DNA from: a bacterium
GTDB taxonomy: Bacteria; UBA8248
Direction of reading: 5' to 3'
NCBI GenBank assembly: GCA_965204535.1
Contig: OZ241996.1
Location: 1,120,001 to 1,184,000 of the forward strand
DNA: 64,000 bases
The notes under the pieces are model-generated. The model ran no database searches. It saw only the letters and a list, made by a program, of their open reading frames with translations, and was not told the DNA's origin. Each line of letters opens with the position of its first letter. Position 1 is the first letter of the stretch. The translations under genes and the position numbers were made by a program. Positions 3,008-38,989 of the stretch are shown piece after piece.

Positions 3008-3828
3008 GTAAAATCGCATTCACCAAGTTCAGCGGAAGCGGCAACGACTTCATATTCATCGACAACAGGAACCTGGAGCACCGGGCCGACGAGATGATCG
3101 GTTTCGTCCAGCGGGTTTGCCGCAGGGGCCAGTCCGTCGGCGCGGACGGGCTGATGTTCATCGAGCCGAGCGAGCGGGCCGATTTCAAGTGGCGGTTCTT
3201 CAACGCCGACGGCTCTGAGGGCGAGATGTGCGGGAACGGCGGTCGCTGCGCCGCGCGTTTTGCGCGAGAGCTGGGCATCGCCGCGGATTCGGTGTCGTTC
3301 GAGACCATCGCGGGCGTCATCGACGCGACGATGAACGGCTCATCCGTGAAGCTCAGGATGACCCAGCCCTTCGATTACCGCGCGGGCATGGAACTCGATA
3401 TCAACGGAAGGGAAGTGGTGGTCGATCACATGAATACCGGCGTCCCCCATGCGGTGGAGTTCACCGACGACGTGGAGACCGTCGACATCGTGGGCGACGG
3501 CCGGGCGATCCGCACGCACGACGCCTTTGCGCCGGCGGGCGCGAACGCGAACTTCGCCCGCGTGATCGGAGAGAATTCGGTGATCCTGAGAACCTATGAG
3601 CGGGGCGTGGAGAACGAAACCCTCGCCTGCGGCACGGGCGCGGTGGCGACGGCGATACTCGCCGCAGCGCGCGGGTTCGTATCCTCTCCCGTGGACGTCA
3701 ACGTGCGCAGCGGCGAAATCCTCAAAATCTATTTCGAGGGTGTCGGCGCGGATGTGCGTGATGTCTACATGGAAGGGGAAACCAGGCTCGTCTACCAGGG
3801 AGAGATGACGGAAGAGGCTCTGCTCTGA
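3004..3828 (+). CDS. dapF: Diaminopimelate epimerase
   Basis: GSGNDF, NADGSEGEMCGNGGRC, ERGVENETLACGTG; GTG start overlaps lysA stop. Confidence 0.96.
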   Translation: MSKIAFTKFSGSGNDFIFIDNRNLEHRADEMIGFVQRVCRRGQSVGADGLMFIEPSERADFKWRFFNADGSEGEMCGNGGRCAARFARELGIAADSVSFETIAGVIDATMNGSSVKLRMTQPFDYRAGMELDINGREVVVDHMNTGVPHAVEFTDDVETVDIVGDGRAIRTHDAFAPAGANANFARVIGENSVILRTYERGVENETLACGTGAVATAILAAARGFVSSPVDVNVRSGEILKIYFEGVGADVRDVYMEGETRLVYQGEMTEEALL

Positions 3829-32661: not shown

Positions 32662-32728
32662 GCCGGGCCTCCTCCGTTCGTTGCGGAAACGAAAAACGCG
32701 GGAATTATATACTTTAGTGCCTTAATGG

Positions 32729-33004
32729 TTATTCCCCTAATTTAGCATTGAATTTCTCTTCGAGTTTGTTGTCTATGACTTCTTCCAATCGTTTGAAGAA
32801 TAAATCCATAGTCCCTTTATTTTTTTCACTTGTTCCACGAAGTGCACGATCCACGAACAATGCGCTTTGCATTTCTAAAATCAATTTTGCCAAATAATCA
32901 GTTCTTTCATTTATACATTTTTCTAATTGAAGATATGCTTGTTGTATTTCAGACATGTCATCCTCCAGCTTCTTAATCCGTGCTTCTAGTTTTCCATCCA
33001 TCAT
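32729..33004 (-). CDS. Hypothetical coiled-coil passenger protein
   Basis: RBS aaggag; 91 aa; ends just inside left TIR. Confidence 0.6.
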   Translation of the reverse strand: MMDGKLEARIKKLEDDMSEIQQAYLQLEKCINERTDYLAKLILEMQSALFVDRALRGTSEKNKGTMDLFFKRLEEVIDNKLEEKFNAKLGE

Positions 33005-33057
33005 TATTTATACTCCTTTTCAGTTAATGAAAATTCTACAAATTCTGAAAATAATAC

Positions 33058-33086
33058 TTGACAACTCCGGCACCATCTAGTATAAT
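33058..33086 (+). promoter_or_regulatory. Consensus sigma70 promoter of the transposase
   Basis: TTGACA-N17-TATAAT, then AGGAG RBS. Confidence 0.85.
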
Positions 33087-33113
33087 TGTGTCATTGAATA
33101 GGAGAAAGAATCA

Positions 33114-34052
33114 ATGGCACAGAAAGCACCAGGCAAGGCATTCAGAGAAGGCATGAGCATCATGGATGCAATGAAGATGTTTCCCGATGATGCAACCGCC
33201 GAAAAGTGGTTCATCGAGAAACGATGGCCTGTTGGCGTATGTTGTCCTGAATGTGGCTCCTTGAATGTTCTCACTGGCGCAAAGCACAAGACAATGCCTT
33301 TCAGGTGTCGTGAAAAGGAATGCGGCAAAAGGTTCAGCGTTCGCACTGGAACAATCATGGAATCTTCAAATCTCGGATATCAATTATGGGCTATGGCTCT
33401 TTACTTCTGCCTCACCAATCTCAAGGGCGTATCCAGCATGAAGTTACACCGAGACCTTGGGATTACCCAAAAATCCGCTTGGCACTTGACTCATAGAATC
33501 CGAAAGGCACTTGAATCAAATAGTGGATTTTTTGATAGTCCAGTAGAAATCGATGAGACTTATATTGGCGGTTTGGAAAGGAACAAGCATAAGGACAAGA
33601 AACAAAATGCCGGACGCGGCGCAGTAGGCAAATCCGCCGTAGTTGGTATCAAGGAGCGGAAATCCAACAAGGTTAAGGCCAAGGTGGTAGAAGATACAAA
33701 GAAAGAAACCTTGCAGGATTTCGTGAATGAAAACGTGGAAGGTGAAGCCGAAAAATACACTGATGAAAATCGTTCATACAGGGGATTGAATAACCACAAG
33801 AAGGTGAACCATAGCATGGGAAAGTGGGTGGACGAGATGGCTCATACAAACGGCATTGAATCCTTCTGGTCAATGTTCAAGCGAGGCTTTCATGGGACCT
33901 ATCACAAAATGAGCCATAAGCATTTACAACGATATGTCGATGAATTCTCTGGAAGGCACAATATCCGTAGTCTTGATACAATCAAGCAGATGGAGGCTAT
34001 GGTAAATGGCATGGACGGGAAGCGACTCAAGTATAAGGATTTGGTGGCTTAA
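33114..34052 (+). CDS. IS1595-family (ISXO2-like) transposase
   Basis: Zn ribbon CPEC..CREKEC, HTH, VEIDETYIGG, YTDE, HTNGIESFWSMFKR. Confidence 0.95.
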   Translation: MAQKAPGKAFREGMSIMDAMKMFPDDATAEKWFIEKRWPVGVCCPECGSLNVLTGAKHKTMPFRCREKECGKRFSVRTGTIMESSNLGYQLWAMALYFCLTNLKGVSSMKLHRDLGITQKSAWHLTHRIRKALESNSGFFDSPVEIDETYIGGLERNKHKDKKQNAGRGAVGKSAVVGIKERKSNKVKAKVVEDTKKETLQDFVNENVEGEAEKYTDENRSYRGLNNHKKVNHSMGKWVDEMAHTNGIESFWSMFKRGFHGTYHKMSHKHLQRYVDEFSGRHNIRSLDTIKQMEAMVNGMDGKRLKYKDLVA

Positions 34053-34053
34053 A

Positions 34054-34230
34054 ATGTCGAAGAAAAAGACGAAACAAAAATTGCCGGTAGTTGAAATCGT
34101 GAAATCGACGTATCAGCCTTCCAAGGCCGAACAAGAAAAAGAATTTGACTTGCCGAAAATGACGCTAGATGAAGCGGCGGAACGATTGTTGCGTCCAGTG
34201 CAAATACGTCATACGGACAAGCCGAAATAA
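34054..34230 (+). CDS. Small 58-aa ORF coupled to the transposase
   Basis: ATG 1 nt after transposase stop; MSKKK...YQPSKAEQE... Confidence 0.6.
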   Translation: MSKKKTKQKLPVVEIVKSTYQPSKAEQEKEFDLPKMTLDEAAERLLRPVQIRHTDKPK

Positions 34231-34255
34231 ACTCATTTCTCGTATAAATAGGTAT

Positions 34256-34477
34256 ATGAATACACACACTCTACCAAGAAACAAAAAAGAATTAACAGAA
34301 TTGATGGAAAGAACCGGAGAAGTGATTCCTAGAGATTGTTTTCCTGATGAAGAATCTTACGCAAAGTTTCGCCGAGGATTAGTTGCACTTGGCGAACTTG
34401 ATTATCATGGTCTGACTGATGAATATAAGGAAATGTGCCAGAGGGAGTTCGAAGGCCAGCTTGATGATCTAAAGTAA
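34256..34477 (+). CDS. Hypothetical passenger protein (73 aa)
   Basis: RBS aggt; overlaps convergent ORF 34329-34604. Confidence 0.45.
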   Translation: MNTHTLPRNKKELTELMERTGEVIPRDCFPDEESYAKFRRGLVALGELDYHGLTDEYKEMCQREFEGQLDDLK

Positions 34478-34604
34478 TAAGAAAATCATTTATGGTTGGT
34501 TCAAACCGAGGAAGGGAAACAATAGTGGCGGCAAGTGCTCCAATGAATTTTTCTACTGCTTCTTGACTAAATTGGTTCTTGTTTGTCTCTTCATTATTCA
34601 TCAT
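34329..34604 (-). CDS. Hypothetical passenger ORF (possibly truncated)
   Basis: Start overlaps TM2 gene stop (ATGA coupling), but 3' half overlaps an opposite-strand ORF. Confidence 0.35.
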   Translation of the reverse strand: MMNNEETNKNQFSQEAVEKFIGALAATIVSLPRFEPTINDFLITLDHQAGLRTPSGTFPYIHQSDHDNQVRQVQLILGETLRKILHQENNL

Positions 34605-35038
34605 TTTTCGCTCCTGAAAAGTGATTCAATAGTTTCAATCTCAATACCTTCGTTATATTTGTCTACTTGATTCGGAATAGTGAACAAGTCGATGAACCAC
34701 CAGATGGCGTAAACAAACAATCCTAAAAAACCAATTGCCGCTAGAAACATTCCCTCGGACAATTCTTCGCCATATGAAACCTGGGAAGCCGGATCAATGC
34801 TCATGATAAGACCTATGAAAAGAAACCAAACGGCAATGGATGGCGCAATTACGTATAAAATTCCTGCCCAAATTCTACCGAGATAGAACTTGTGAATTCC
34901 AAGGAAACTTAAAAAGAACCATAGAACATAGGTCAGGCCAACGGATTTTTTCCTTCGTTCGACTTCACTTTGCAAAATATGAAATTCCCTATCATCAAGT
35001 TCCTTTTTCATGGCTATTAGATTTTGGGGACGATTCAT
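34601..35038 (-). CDS. TM2-domain membrane protein
   Basis: KKSVGLTYVLWFFLSFLGIHKFYLG...WWFIDLFTIP. Confidence 0.88.
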   Translation of the reverse strand: MNRPQNLIAMKKELDDREFHILQSEVERRKKSVGLTYVLWFFLSFLGIHKFYLGRIWAGILYVIAPSIAVWFLFIGLIMSIDPASQVSYGEELSEGMFLAAIGFLGLFVYAIWWFIDLFTIPNQVDKYNEGIEIETIESLFRSEK

Positions 35039-35604
35039 GATGATGTTTCCTTTACGGGAGATTCTTTTCTAAACCAAATCCGGCTTTCTCTGGTGAAAGC
35101 AAATACTATGGCGATGCATTCAAGAAACAATCGAGCAGTTTGAGATATTTCCAAAAAGTTCAAGGAAACAAGTCCTGATGTAATTTCTGATATTTGAAGT
35201 GTAAAAGAAAGAATGGAAAATCCAGAAATAATGACGATGATCCATTTAGCGATATTGCTTCTCTTCCGTGAAGCGAGCAGACACAATATTGCTATGCTTC
35301 CATACACAAAAAGCAAAATTCCTAATTGAAGAAAAATGGATATTTCTACTTCAGGACGCATTTCGGGATAACGAACATATATTTGCAATTCTATGAATAG
35401 TGAAAGTAGATACGCGGCCTCGAAATTTTTGATTGACTGAGGTCTTTTATCCTGTTCTTCTTCCAATCTTTCTTGTTCTTCTTTCAATATTTGTTTTTGT
35501 TGTTTTTCTTCCTTCCATCCATCTTTTAATTTTCGATTGCGTTCTCGCGCTTCCCGTTCTTGACGTTTCCACCAAGGTTCTTGTTCTTCTGGTTTTTTGG
35601 ACAT
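35035..35604 (-). CDS. Membrane protein with charged N-terminus and about 4 TM helices
   Basis: ATG 35604 with agagg RBS; coupled to TM2 gene. Confidence 0.65.
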   Translation of the reverse strand: MSKKPEEQEPWWKRQEREARERNRKLKDGWKEEKQQKQILKEEQERLEEEQDKRPQSIKNFEAAYLLSLFIELQIYVRYPEMRPEVEISIFLQLGILLFVYGSIAILCLLASRKRSNIAKWIIVIISGFSILSFTLQISEITSGLVSLNFLEISQTARLFLECIAIVFAFTRESRIWFRKESPVKETSS

Positions 35605-35628
35605 GATTGCCTCTATGACAATAACATT

Positions 35629-35790
35629 CCCGGCTTTCCAACAAGGCCGGGCCTTGGCTACCATCACAGAGAGAAAGTGAAGTCTCGCCTATTTACCTTT
35701 TGTTCGGGGAGCTACCCCAAACTAGGTACGAAGGCTTTTGTATTCAGCGAGTGACCCGACGTGCGGTCGGAATCCCTCTATGATGGTAGC
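35629..35790 (-). ncRNA. Candidate structured RNA, copy A (C4/CI-antisense-like architecture)
   Basis: 15-bp stem 35776-35790/35657-35671 with G-U only on the minus strand; core GUCGGGUCACUCGCUGAAUACAAAA homologous to 62421-62445; upstream TTGACT-N18-TACCAT. Confidence 0.7.
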
Positions 35791-35798
35791 TGGAAAAG

Positions 35799-35828
35799 AT
35801 GGTATGTGAGGTCGAATGTTAAAGTCAA
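35799..35828 (-). promoter_or_regulatory. Sigma70-like promoter for RNA copy A and the passenger operon
   Basis: TTGACT (35828-35823), 18 nt, TACCAT (35804-35799). Confidence 0.6.
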
Positions 35829-35937
35829 GATGCTATCAAACGGGGAGAAGTGAAAATGCGTATAAATAAATATAGGACTCTGGAAGATTAGGAAAGAAAT
35901 TGAAGAATATTTTTAGGCACTATTGTATATAATTCCC

Positions 35938-35963
35938 AAAACGCCCCTCGAAAACGGGGGCGC
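35938..35963 (-). terminator. Intrinsic terminator of the selenoprotein gene; transposon inserted in its U-tract
   Basis: Stem cgcccc/ggggcg followed by T-run on the minus strand. Confidence 0.65.
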
Positions 35964-35982
35964 ATTTCAAAGACGAATTTCG

Positions 35983-36675
35983 CTAGATAGCCGTGTCGGC
36001 GCGAGCGGTGAAGATGGTGTGCTCCATCCTGGGCATCCCCTCGAACTTGGGATCCTCGTTCACCATCCCGGCCAGATATTCATCCACGTGCTCCGCATTC
36101 GACCACGTGCATTTGTAGGCCACTTTCCCATCTTTGCCGATGAGCCAGATGGTGTTCGGCAGGTCCCCGAGCATGGCGTGCACCTTCTGGTCCATTTCGT
36201 CGACGAGGATGTTGGTTTCCATGTTCTTTATTTCGGCCAGCTTCTGGGCGTAGCTTCGCTTGTGCTCGTAGGATTCGTGGTTTCTGATCTCGGGGAATCC
36301 GCGCTCGCCCGCGTGGGGTTCCCTCACGTAGAGATTGAAGACGGCCACGTCGCGATCCGCATATTTCTCCTGCAACTCTTCGTAAAACGGCACCTGCCGC
36401 CTGTACGGCGGTCACGTGATGGCGCCCGTGGTGATCACCACGTATTTCTTGCCCAGATAATCCGCCATGCGATGGACGTTCCCGTGAATGTCCTTGAGTT
36501 CGAAGTCGGGGAAGGGGGCGCCGGGAGGAAGAACGTCCGGGAATTTCTCATAAAAACTTTTGACCCGTTTGCTCGTGACGAGTTTGATGGTCTTCCACAG
36601 GTTCAGATACTGCCAGGACCAAAAACCCGCCAGCGGCCCCCAGGGTTTGGGGACGGAATCGTTAGCCGGCCTCAT
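35983..36675 (-). CDS. Iodothyronine deiodinase-like thioredoxin-fold selenoprotein (Sec at TGA 36414-36412)
   Basis: Two track ORFs are in frame across a single TGA: TTGAIT-U-PPY (cf. deiodinase GSCTUPPF) and downstream YVREPH (cf. YIEEAH); RBS gaggag. Confidence 0.85.
36381..36407 (-). promoter_or_regulatory. Bacterial SECIS-like hairpin
   Basis: CGUA-C-AGGCGGC-[AGGU]-GCCGUUU-UACG; apical loop begins 17 nt after UGA with G in second position. Confidence 0.7.
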
Positions 36676-36872
36676 ATGAAATGACTCCTCTGCGATGTAC
36701 GCTTGATTGTATGATGGTGTGTAAGCCCGCTATTTGTTTACCCAATCGCAGAGTGAAACACAACCGCCAAGAAGTGGGAACGGAAAAAGGTTCCTGGGGG
36801 GTGAATTTTGCGAATTTTTTTCACATTGTTTTTCAAAATATTTTGTCATTTATCTAAAGTAAATTGTAGGGA

Positions 36873-36972
36873 TTAAAAATCGAACGACAGCTGCGGCTCT
36901 TTTTCCCCCGAAGCGCCTTTTGGGGGATGTTTCGAAGAATCTTTCTCTTTGCTTTGGGTGCGCGGCGGTTTT
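36873..36972 (-). pseudogene. Orphan duplicate 3' end of the gene at 38156-38989
   Basis: 97-bp gap-free match to 38162-38258 (about 83% by manual count); encodes KGASGEKEPQLSFDF*. Confidence 0.8.
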
Positions 36973-37175
36973 GTCGGGGTTTCTTTGCGCTGGCATCTCT
37001 CGGCGGTGTCGCGCAGGGTACGCAGAATAGATGTGTGGGAGCCATACGGACTGGTTATTCGTGAGGCCGACGCTGCAAGGTGCACAGTAGACCGACTTTG
37101 AACAGGCCAGGAGACAGAACTCTTGGTCGCTCAGAGTGCGCCTTGGCCGTTTCATCATGGTCCTGTTGCAGCCAA

Positions 37176-38102
37176 TTACGTGGATACCTCCAGAAACCGC
37201 TTTATAGCTTGTATGATACGTTCCGGTGCGTCCTCTTGAAGGAAATGACTCGCCTCCTCCAACTCATGCGTCGTTGCATGGGGATAAAGCTGTTGCCACA
37301 TGCGCAACACCGCAGGGGGAAGCACCGGGTCCTGCATACCCCAAACCAAGAGCACCGGGATATGCTGGAACTGTGTCAAGCCGTTCTCGATTTGTTGCAT
37401 CTCCGCGTAGGATTCGTCACTTGCCGTGACGGGAATATCGCGTGACCAGCACAGAAGCGCACGCCTGGATTCTGGTGTGCGGAACGGGGCTAGGTAGGCA
37501 TTCAGGACGGTCTCCGTGAGGTGGTTCGAATGGGCGGTCGTTCCCATCAACGCGGGTTTCACATAGCCATTCTTGCCCATAATAAAGGCTTCCCCACGGG
37601 GTGAGCGGATGAGTTCTATCAGCCGTGGCAACGGTCCCCCCGGCCACCGCGCGAACGCCCACGTATTCATCAGGATTAGCCGTTTCAAGCGGCTGGGATG
37701 TCGGATAGCGAAGCCCAGACCGACCGGCCCTCCCCAATCATGGACGACCAAGGTGATGTCGCGTAGTTCCAACCTCAAGATGAGCGTTTCGAGATTGTCA
37801 ATATGATGCCGGAGCCGATACGGATATGGGATTTCAGGCACGCCGGACTTGCCCATGCCCATGTGGTCGGGAACAATGCACCGGGCGTATTTGGAGAGGG
37901 ATGGGAGAAAGCGCCGATAGAGATAACCCCAAGTCGGGTCGCCGTGCAACAGGACCAGTGGGTCTCCTTCACCCACATCCACATAGTGCATTTGAAAGGA
38001 GTCCAGTTCCACATAGTGGGGCTCAAAAGGAAACGTCCCGTCAAAGTTCGCCTCTCTGAGACCAAGCACACGTCTGTTCCTTCCAATTCTCTTCCTGCTC
38101 AT
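37176..38102 (-). CDS. Haloalkane dehalogenase/OleB-like alpha/beta hydrolase
   Basis: LHGDPTW, VVHDWGG nucleophile elbow, WGMQD, ASHFLQED. Confidence 0.85.
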   Translation of the reverse strand: MSRKRIGRNRRVLGLREANFDGTFPFEPHYVELDSFQMHYVDVGEGDPLVLLHGDPTWGYLYRRFLPSLSKYARCIVPDHMGMGKSGVPEIPYPYRLRHHIDNLETLILRLELRDITLVVHDWGGPVGLGFAIRHPSRLKRLILMNTWAFARWPGGPLPRLIELIRSPRGEAFIMGKNGYVKPALMGTTAHSNHLTETVLNAYLAPFRTPESRRALLCWSRDIPVTASDESYAEMQQIENGLTQFQHIPVLLVWGMQDPVLPPAVLRMWQQLYPHATTHELEEASHFLQEDAPERIIQAIKRFLEVST

Positions 38103-38155
38103 ACAATAGGGCAGGTTGTTGACATCATGCTCCCCGAATAGAAACTTTCTAATTG

Positions 38156-38989
38156 CTACTTAAAATCGAACGACAGTTGCGGTTCTTTCTCGCCGGAAGC
38201 GCCTTTTTGGGGATGATTCGAAGAAATGTCTTCTTCTCCTCGGGTGCGCGGCGGTTTTTGGGGTGACTTCGCTTCTTCAGGCCTCGCATGGGTGGGGAGT
38301 TCAGATTCCCCCGGCGGGGGCCATCTCGGCTTTCTCGTTTCAGGCCGGGACGCAGCGTTCGGCCTCCCCGGCTCCTGAGAGTCGTTTCTCGACTTGAGGT
38401 CTGCGGCCGCCATTTCAAATGCCCTCGTCAAATTTTCAGGTTTTTGCCAGACGGCTTCTTGCGAGGATGCCCGGCCCCCGCCCTTCATGCGCATGAGTTT
38501 GGCTTTCAAATCCTCGATGCGCGCGTAAAAGCCGGGGCTGTGGGGCGTGGAGGGGATTCTGAGAAATTTCCGGTCGATGTGGTGCATGAGTTCGTGAATG
38601 AGTGTATCCAGAAACGTCTTGCCCGCGACGATCTGTTTGCGGATAGACGTGAGATTTGCGATTTCGATCATCGCGTTTCGGCAGTGGTAGACGCCGTAGA
38701 GCTTGTAGGCGAGTTTTCCTTCATACATTTCGTGGGGCTGCCGCTCGTTGATCACGCGCAGGCGCGCCCGCGGGATTTTGAGGCTTCGGCAGATGTTGTC
38801 GAGCAGTTTCTGGCCCAGCGCTTCGCGCTCGCTCGCGCTCGTGGATTCGATGAGCTTTCTGGTGAGTTCACGCTCCTCGTCTGCCGGTCGGTATTCGAGC
38901 GCCGGGAATTTGTTGGAGCGCGTGAAATCCGGTGTATTGCGGCGCCTGCCCATGAGAGATGGTTTCCGAGACGAGTCCGGGCGGAACAA
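38156..38989 (-). CDS. SprT/Wss1-like HExxH zinc metalloprotease with disordered tail ending QLSFDFK
   Basis: TLIHELMHH...PHSPGFYARI; start uncertain (TTG 38989 or ATG 38953). Confidence 0.7.
   Translation of the reverse strand: MFRPDSSRKPSLMGRRRNTPDFTRSNKFPALEYRPADEERELTRKLIESTSASEREALGQKLLDNICRSLKIPRARLRVINERQPHEMYEGKLAYKLYGVYHCRNAMIEIANLTSIRKQIVAGKTFLDTLIHELMHHIDRKFLRIPSTPHSPGFYARIEDLKAKLMRMKGGGRASSQEAVWQKPENLTRAFEMAAADLKSRNDSQEPGRPNAASRPETRKPRWPPPGESELPTHARPEEAKSPQKPPRTRGEEDISSNHPQKGASGEKEPQLSFDFK

Follow-up and report, generated by a model that had tools for sequence, protein, structure and literature searches.

Two apparent small genes in a UBA8248 bacterium are very likely one deiodinase-like selenoprotein gene

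In the window, the 64,000-nucleotide stretch of bacterial DNA that was analyzed here, two apparent small genes are very likely one conserved gene in which an in-frame UGA encodes selenocysteine (Sec). Because the genome has the Sec machinery, the TGA is conserved in the family, outside relatives carry Cys at the same site and the SECIS hairpin is under selection, codon 88 is almost certainly read as Sec, through SelB bound to the hairpin 16 nt downstream. This result corrects a gene that public calls have cut in two and provides a subfamily that is well supported and has an exceptionally clear SECIS signal. The traits specific to the clade are that it is predicted to be soluble, has no resolving Cys, is multicopy and is core to one uncultured phylum.

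Reading frame and conservation of the in-frame UGA

The features discussed here are collected in Table 1. The frame lies on the minus strand, opens with an ATG at 36675 and closes with a TAG at 35985-35983, and its lone in-frame TGA is codon 88; under the standard code it is split into two ORFs of 87 and 136 residues. The earlier note had joined these ORFs across a single TGA into a 230-residue protein with the motifs GAIT-U-PPY and YVREPH; the frame was confirmed, and both motifs are present in its translation. In public gene calls of relatives, only the downstream piece appears: all 60 protein matches are 127-137 residues long and cover just 44-59% of the 230-residue query. All 29 related loci of the genome collection have the same length, with the terminal stop at codon 228-232, and all have TGA at codon 88. 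The opposite strand also has an open frame of 253 codons (35923-36684), which was taken as a shadow frame.

When 102 matches were collapsed to 73 distinct genes, the TGA at codon 88 was found in 72 of them (including the window gene and its two paralogs), at 37-100% identity; the remaining one, a distant gene with 28% identity, has neither Cys nor TGA at the catalytic site. A search of the phylum gave at least 106 matches that span 190 residues or more; by hand count, each of these has a single TGA, and one additionally has a TAG. The earlier note had named Trp or Arg at this site in homologs as the result that would speak against Sec. Among the 118 outside domain sequences with the E-x-H motif within the best 150 library matches, the site is occupied by Cys in 108, Ser in 4, Gly in 2, and Asn, Thr, Ala and Arg in one each, and by Trp in none, so that a single Arg is all that was seen of either residue. 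Many family genes terminate in TGA and, since TGA serves them as a working stop, it is not a Trp codon in this lineage.

Table 1. Positions of the deiodinase-like gene, its signals and conserved residues, a neighboring gene and two paralogs
Feature	Position	Strand	Evidence or remark
Deiodinase-like thioredoxin-fold CDS, 230 residues, UGA read through	35983..36675	-	Frame and family conservation
In-frame UGA, codon 88, inferred selenocysteine	36412..36414	-	Conservation; alignment with Dio3 Sec170
Bacterial SECIS hairpin; 4-nt loop AGGU at 36395-36392	36385..36402	-	Folding, synonymous constraint, covariation
Y116-x-x-E119-x-H121 (Dio3 Tyr197, Glu200, His202)	36313..36330	-	Alignment; Y 71/71, E 70/71, H 71/71
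H133 (Dio3 His219), end of loop D	36277..36279	-	Alignment; 71/71 genes
N-terminal three-helix segment, residues 14-47, after conserved PPGPxxGxWS-type motif	36535..36636	-	Model, alignment, charge
GAGGAG ribosome-binding-like site, 9 nt ahead of ATG	36685..36690	-	Sequence
Terminator-like GC hairpin and short T run directly 3' of stop	35938..35966	-	Folding
Haloalkane-dehalogenase-like gene	37176-38102		Upstream of selenoprotein gene; PRK03592 209 bits, below cut-off (241)
Paralog L039	G000:C2:1144997-1145608		About 40% identical; TGA and SECIS
Paralog L040	G000:C2:105729-106343		About 40% identical; TGA and SECIS

SECIS element

In the hairpin downstream of the UGA (AGGCGGC-AGGU-GCCGUUU), the stem has 7 bp, the 4-nt loop lies 16 nt from the UGA and has G at position 2, and the folding energy is -8.1 kcal/mol. 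The bacterial SECIS consensus, as worded in the text of a 2026 review, comprises a loop of 3-9 nt, a stem of 4-16 bp, a G in the first two loop positions, a distance of 16-37 nt from the UGA and an energy of -7.5 kcal/mol or lower (PMC13188914). The agreement with this consensus that had been claimed before holds for each of these values, as tested with our own script and not with bSECISearch. Stability, considered as proof of a SECIS, had to be rejected, because the hairpin showed no significant excess over shuffles (z = +0.35, -0.62 and -0.28) and the consensus, loosely applied, is matched by the majority of random TGAs: some hairpin was found at 3217 of 5000 random genomic TGA triplets, and at 365 of them with -7.5 kcal/mol or lower.

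It is the conservation of the hairpin across the family that makes it more than chance. With the distance fixed at 16 nt and the energy at -5 kcal/mol or lower, a hairpin is present in 66 of the 72 family genes and at 62 of 5000 random TGAs, a comparison in which the distance was taken from this very gene and the 72 genes are kin; six family genes fail the strict hairpin rule. Among 71 full-length genes aligned by codon, the tree requires 1, 2 and 4 changes at the four-fold degenerate sites of codons 93, 95 and 96, all within the hairpin; these are the lowest counts of 32 such sites (median 15, next lowest 7). Covariation was measured in 27 of the 72 genes, hand-picked for spread and excluding the paralog group with a 5-nt loop. 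The six-pair stem was 88% paired with 19 two-sided changes, a result that none of 500 shuffles reached; the outermost pair was broken in 14 of the 27 genes, and shifting the stem partners by +1 left a covariation score of 0.228 versus 0.280. On the basis of the frozen synonymous sites and the compensatory pair changes, the SECIS hairpin is under selection. It may be the SECIS, and not the protein, that keeps R93-Q94 invariant. In the paralog group of L039, the register is shifted, and a 5-nt loop tops a stem of 7 G-C pairs (-13.9 kcal/mol).

Two other hairpins of the same genome (G000) should be mentioned. A thioredoxin-like UxxC gene (locus L127, G000:C2:1862440, minus strand) has a hairpin with the same C-AGGU-G core as the deiodinase-like genes, at the same distance from its UGA. 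In addition, a repeated G-rich hairpin element starting with TGA, probably a small repeat family, gave about eight false SECIS matches (for example, at C1:986910, C1:532651 and C2:240187).

Sec machinery and predicted selenoproteome of the genome

The genes selA, selB and selD and the tRNA-Sec (selC), for which a check had been proposed in the earlier note, were all found in the genome, each above its curated cut-off. The selD gene itself contains one TGA, and selA is present in 49 of the 51 genomes of the phylum. A scan of the genome by coding potential and hairpin gave 256 raw selenoprotein candidates, which were then narrowed by a motif filter. Among 20 other TGA read-through genes that were picked by eye (loci L115-L134), 19 match redox families, namely CMD/AhpD-like (7), DsbA-like (3) and GrdB-like (2) proteins as well as Rdx, thioredoxin, UGSC, OsmC, rhodanese, DUF3179 and a glutaredoxin-DinB fusion; further CxxU AhpD-like copies were found by the motif filter. 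The formate dehydrogenase (FDH) alpha match in this genome has no TGA. The deiodinase-like gene is likely one of more than 20 selenoprotein genes in the genome.

The alternative that the UGA is a true stop, leaving two small genes or a pseudogene, or encodes Trp under another genetic code could draw on the public calls, which give the downstream piece only, and on a hairpin no more stable than its shuffles, but it is largely refuted and highly improbable, given an in-frame TGA that persists at the same codon in all 72 genes down to 37% identity and would cut the thioredoxin fold at the catalytic residue, the use of TGA as terminal stop by many family genes, the Cys of relatives, the synonymously frozen hairpin codons and the Sec machinery.

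Distribution of the family

Of the 51 genomes of the phylum, 48 contain a strong match (best E-value 6e-43 or lower), and 2-4 copies per genome are common; the three genomes without one are G008, G013 and G011, the last of which is 67% complete. The genome studied here has three copies, each with a TGA and a hairpin. In a FastTree analysis, 25 Sec genes fell in one clade with weak support (0.80); Sec genes of other phyla are missing from this tree because such genes are split in the protein library. Named relatives carry the submitter labels Nitrospinota, Nitrospinaceae or Ca. Tectomicrobia, and genomes with these labels presumably fall in the UBA8248 lineage of GTDB. This lineage has recently been named Spongiamicota and is described as most abundant in sponge metagenomes in passages of three papers (PMC11920076, PMC10839748, PMC9531527). 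Contigs of sponge-metagenome RNA libraries contain close relatives (about 92-95% identical); three of these contigs, X1 (36015-36703), X7 and X8, span the UGA site, although such contigs cannot show transcription, its strand or its level. A metagenome scan returned 3 loci and nothing new. In genome G012 (L088:5003-6199), two distant deiodinase-like ORFs are adjacent, one with one TGA and the other with a signal-peptide-like start and neither Cys nor TGA at the catalytic position.

Fold and active site

Three Pfam models match the protein above their cut-offs: AhpC-TSA (45.6 bits), T4_deiodinase (PF00837; 40.7 bits, cut-off 27) and Redoxin (40.6 bits); the two paralogs reach 65.5 and 52.1 bits with PF00837. 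When the single sequence was used to search solved structures, TlpA-like proteins came first and Dio3 third. A profile of 49 family members ranked Dio3 (4tr3, E-value 6e-16) and Dio2 (9h48, 1.4e-14) ahead of ResA (3.8e-13). The model predicted from 49 sequences (pLDDT 92.7, pTM 0.90) has three N-terminal helices, a beta-hairpin and a thioredoxin core, in which the Sec starts the helix of residues 89-104 and a loop-helix-strand insertion (residues 117-158) stands where Dio has its D-insertion. With this Dio match, the conservation and the machinery, the earlier proposal of a hidden gene that is deiodinase-like, a selenoprotein and equipped with a SECIS is supported in all three respects.

Numbering of Dio3 was counted along the printed alignment, in which residue 57 of the 4tr3 chain is Sec170. 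Residues T87, Y116, E119, H121 and H133 correspond to Dio3 Thr169, Tyr197, Glu200, His202 and His219 and are kept in 70-71 of 71 genes. Together with Ser167, these Dio residues form the network of protons and hydrogen bonds described in the text of two papers (PMC12025243, PMC11592359). Five of its six members are thus kept, and the equivalent of Ser167 is Ala in 69 of 71 genes. The Sec is followed by Pro-Pro, and the position three residues after it (91) is Tyr in 52, Phe in 14, another residue in 5 and Cys in none of the 71 genes. Neither CxxC nor UxxC occurs in this clade, which argues against an ordinary disulfide reductase. The equivalent of Cys168 is Ile, Val or Leu, that of Cys239 is absent, no conserved resolving Cys was found among the 71 genes, and 38 of them have no Cys at all apart from the Sec site.

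Peroxiredoxins have a Thr three residues before the catalytic residue and a catalytic Arg after the cis-Pro loop. A search for peroxiredoxin or TlpA motifs found A85 at -3 from the Sec, Tyr or Phe at +3 and no Arg after the P173-N174 loop. Around the substrate site of Dio, Phe258 is replaced by Pro and Glu259 by Asn (68 of 71 genes), the next residue is variable and not Arg, and an invariant Y-K-x-x-W follows the Glu259-Arg260 site. The invariant Trp191 stands at about the position of Arg275, by extrapolation four residues past the printed alignment; Trp207, Asp211 and, by the same extrapolation, Arg275 are not kept. Most outside relatives share the Pro (104 of 115), the Asn (105) and the Trp (99), so that this clade belongs to a broad bacterial subgroup whose pocket is unlike the animal one. 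Outside relatives are also fused to thioredoxin, EF-hand or hydrolase domains.

Membrane association, which had been suggested from a Trp-rich amphipathic N-terminus, was not borne out in the form of an anchor: none of the 71 genes reaches a Kyte-Doolittle value of 1.6 over 19 residues, the maximum in this gene being 0.41. The N-terminus is basic and amphipathic (median net charge of +6 over the first 50 residues in 71 genes) and is modeled as three short helices, which may bind the membrane peripherally.

Genomic context

No conserved neighbor pointing to a substrate was found, as clustering over 72 loci gave lineage synteny only, and no regulator was found as conserved neighbor. The haloalkane-dehalogenase-like gene upstream was considered as a functional partner and rejected. 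It occurs in only 1 of 69 other loci and is flanked by a 97-nt duplication, and two relatives have unrelated cargo at the site, all of which marks it as a recent insertion. The insertion hotspot spans 36876-38258, and the duplicated segment is the 3' end of the gene at 38156-38989; in loci L011 and L021, the same hotspot holds a different gene pair, one gene of which has a P-loop motif. The gene at 38156-38989 (minus strand) encodes a 277-residue protein with an HELMH motif and no match in Pfam or NCBIfam, and lies upstream in 26 of 69 loci.

Similarly, a DinB/mycothiol-transferase-like gene was rejected as an operon partner, for which the case is weak at best. It adjoins in 20 of 29 orthologous loci, all of them close kin, and in other genera it lies elsewhere or was not found. 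A terminator-like hairpin stands between the two genes, and in this genome a 3.2-kb insertion also separates them. The insertion (32700-35937), which none of 69 related loci has, lies at the hairpin that follows the selenoprotein gene. It has a low GC content (34-45%), imperfect 26-nt inverted ends and a 7-bp duplication, and its genes are an IS1595-family transposase, a TM2-domain gene and hypothetical ones. The terminator-like hairpin suggests that the selenoprotein gene is transcribed as a one-gene unit; a comparable hairpin was seen in 8 of 11 orthologous loci that were folded, and the hairpin of this gene was not among the calls of a terminator scan. Upstream of the gene, no promoter was called by a scan. 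The selenoprotein gene stands tail to tail with selA-selB in three genomes from a single other family of the phylum (G003, loci L037/L072; G001, L071; G002, L089), and the copy in G002 is interrupted by an apparent insertion sequence.

Possible functions

Our tentative best guess for the function, drawn from sequence, is a thiol-recycled reductive dehalogenase acting on a small haloaromatic compound; a general reductase is nearly as likely, and sequence cannot separate the two. The putative dehalogenase would be a soluble single-selenium enzyme that strips bromine or iodine from a small aromatic compound. By analogy with animal deiodinases, the selenolate would take the halogen as X+, and the Thr87-Tyr116-Glu119-His121-His133 network would hand a proton to the ring carbon and so complete the reduction; that such Dio-type chemistry operates here has somewhat less than an even chance. 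Since there is no conserved second Cys, the oxidized selenium would have to be reduced by an outside thiol, either a small molecule or a partner protein, unless the enzyme acts in a single turnover, as proposed for Dio2, which is described as close to single-turnover in the text of PMC11592359. The substrate is likely neither a thyronine nor a halotyrosine, because the residues binding the amino-acid end are replaced, and the three paralogs of the genome, about 40% identical, might cover different substrates.

In favor of a dehalogenase, the family profile places Dio3 and Dio2 above ResA, and five of the six network residues are kept. The T4_deiodinase match above its cut-off, the modeled insertion at the place of the Dio D-insertion, the lack of CxxC or UxxC and the occurrence of close relatives in sponge-metagenome contigs speak for it as well. 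The Pro-Pro after Sec and the Pro at the Phe258 site are seen in Dio2/3 and Dio1, respectively, so that both changes occur in active deiodinases. A bacterial precedent is Bmp8, a different protein that is described as performing cysteine-based reductive debromination (PMC5577590). On the other hand, the single-sequence search prefers TlpA-like proteins to Dio3, AhpC-TSA scores above T4_deiodinase, Ser167 is Ala, Trp207, Asp211 and the Glu259-Arg260 pair are not kept, and no dehalogenation gene was found as a conserved neighbor. The family also belongs to the core of the phylum, even where record titles hint at an origin in open water or groundwater, and the gene sits among many generic thiol-redox selenoproteins of its genome. 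The broader proposal of a phylum-wide set of soluble, multi-paralog and always selenium-based reductive dehalogenases, with which these marine and sponge-associated bacteria would remove bromine or iodine from aromatic compounds of the host or the environment, appears unlikely.

A general thiol-dependent reductase is only slightly less plausible. Its single Sec, regenerated by a small thiol, would reduce an oxidant other than a carbon-halogen bond, namely a hydroperoxide, sulfenic acid, mixed disulfide, hypohalite or N-haloamine, and deiodination would be a later, animal-specific use of the fold. AhpC-TSA and Redoxin match the protein no less strongly than the deiodinase model does, and the presence in 48 of 51 genomes, often in 2-4 copies, is what would be expected of a housekeeping redox gene. 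The redox families matched by 19 of the 20 hand-picked read-through genes, the domain fusions of outside relatives and the missing Dio substrate-site residues point the same way, and a redox role was suggested in the text of PMC1088965. However, this clade is without a second active-site Cys, and it keeps a Tyr-Glu-His-His network to which the TlpA/ResA matches do not align. The peroxiredoxin Thr at -3 and the Arg after the cis-Pro loop are also missing.

It is considerably less probable that the protein is a stoichiometric scavenger or sensor. In that case, the selenolate would react a single time, capturing an electrophile or metal(loid), and the basic N-terminal helices would serve to bind a partner, nucleic acid or the surface of a membrane. 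The genes with no Cys besides the Sec site (38 of 71), the positive charge of the first 50 residues and the near single-turnover behavior described for Dio2 (PMC11592359) would suit such a role, but the full proton-relay network from Thr87 to His133 is conserved, which suits catalysis, and no regulator is a conserved neighbor.

Being small, predicted to be soluble, free of an anchor and provided with both Sec and Cys relatives, the clade is convenient for an assay of bacterial deiodinase-like function. If the protein is a dehalogenase, marine halogen cycling would be linked to the origin of thyroid-hormone metabolism; if the whole family is, a bacterial enzyme of the deiodinase fold would for the first time have a substrate, and the chemistry that gave rise to thyroid-hormone deiodinases would have a living model. 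As a general reductase, the protein would add to the numerous redox selenoproteins of a selenium-rich genome.

Comparison with known systems

With TlpA/ResA and AhpC/TSA proteins, the clade shares the fold class, the N-terminal module and the Pro of the cis-Pro loop, and TlpA-like proteins are its best single-sequence matches in the PDB. In contrast with them, it has neither CxxC nor an export or anchor segment nor the peroxiredoxin Thr and Arg, and it has the Dio-type His-Glu-His insertion. The best NCBIfam match is the 'deiodinase family protein' NF038285 (E-value 1.1e-20, residues 54-189), of which the gene is not a member (74.5 bits versus a cut-off of 250, for a model of 347 positions).

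The likeness to Dio1-3 (4tr3 for Dio3, 9h48 for Dio2) extends to the thioredoxin fold, the N-terminal beta-hairpin, the D-insertion, the Sec and the equivalents of Thr169, Tyr197, Glu200, His202 and His219. The Pro-Pro after Sec is shared with Dio2/3, the lack of a Cys two residues before Sec with Dio2, and the Pro at the Phe258 site with Dio1. Unlike Dio, the bacterial clade has no transmembrane helix and no equivalent of Cys239, Trp207 or Asp211, has Ala for Ser167, has Asn and a variable residue for Glu259-Arg260 and the invariant Trp191 near the (extrapolated) Arg275 position, and the SECIS of this gene is bacterial and lies inside the coding sequence. The vertebrate enzymes require a homodimer for activity. 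The Glu-Arg pair is described as binding the amino-acid end of the substrate in Dio1-3 (PMC11592359). Without this thyronine-binding pair, a transmembrane helix and a conserved resolving Cys, the protein is most likely not a thyroid-hormone deiodinase, and the iodo- and bromo-tyrosines that had been put forward for assay are doubtful substrates, since the pair is common to all three animal enzymes.

Deiodinase-like proteins with Sec or Cys and a bacterial SECIS were reported in 2005 by Zhang, Fomenko and Gladyshev, who, in the text of that paper, expected a different, possibly general redox role (PMC1088965). Passages of a 2022 and a 2026 review list the family with the motif UxxC and no known function (PMC9312934, PMC13188914), and the latter calls the bacterial proteins largely uncharacterized (PMC13188914). 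Literature searches, covering mostly open-access papers by their listings, showed neither an assay of a bacterial member nor a description of this clade, which supplementary selenoprotein tables could list. The 2005 family is defined by PF00837, a bacterial SECIS and a catalytic Sec or Cys. This gene shows these features, together with an in-frame UGA at the catalytic position and Cys-containing homologs; the UxxC of the catalogue, which we read as descriptive and not defining, is absent. The gene is a new member of an enzyme class known since 2005. Compared with the catalogued members, as judged by their descriptions, its clade differs from the UxxC representative in having U-P-P-Y/F without a resolving Cys, and it has an N-terminal PPGPxxGxWS module of its own and multiple copies across one phylum.
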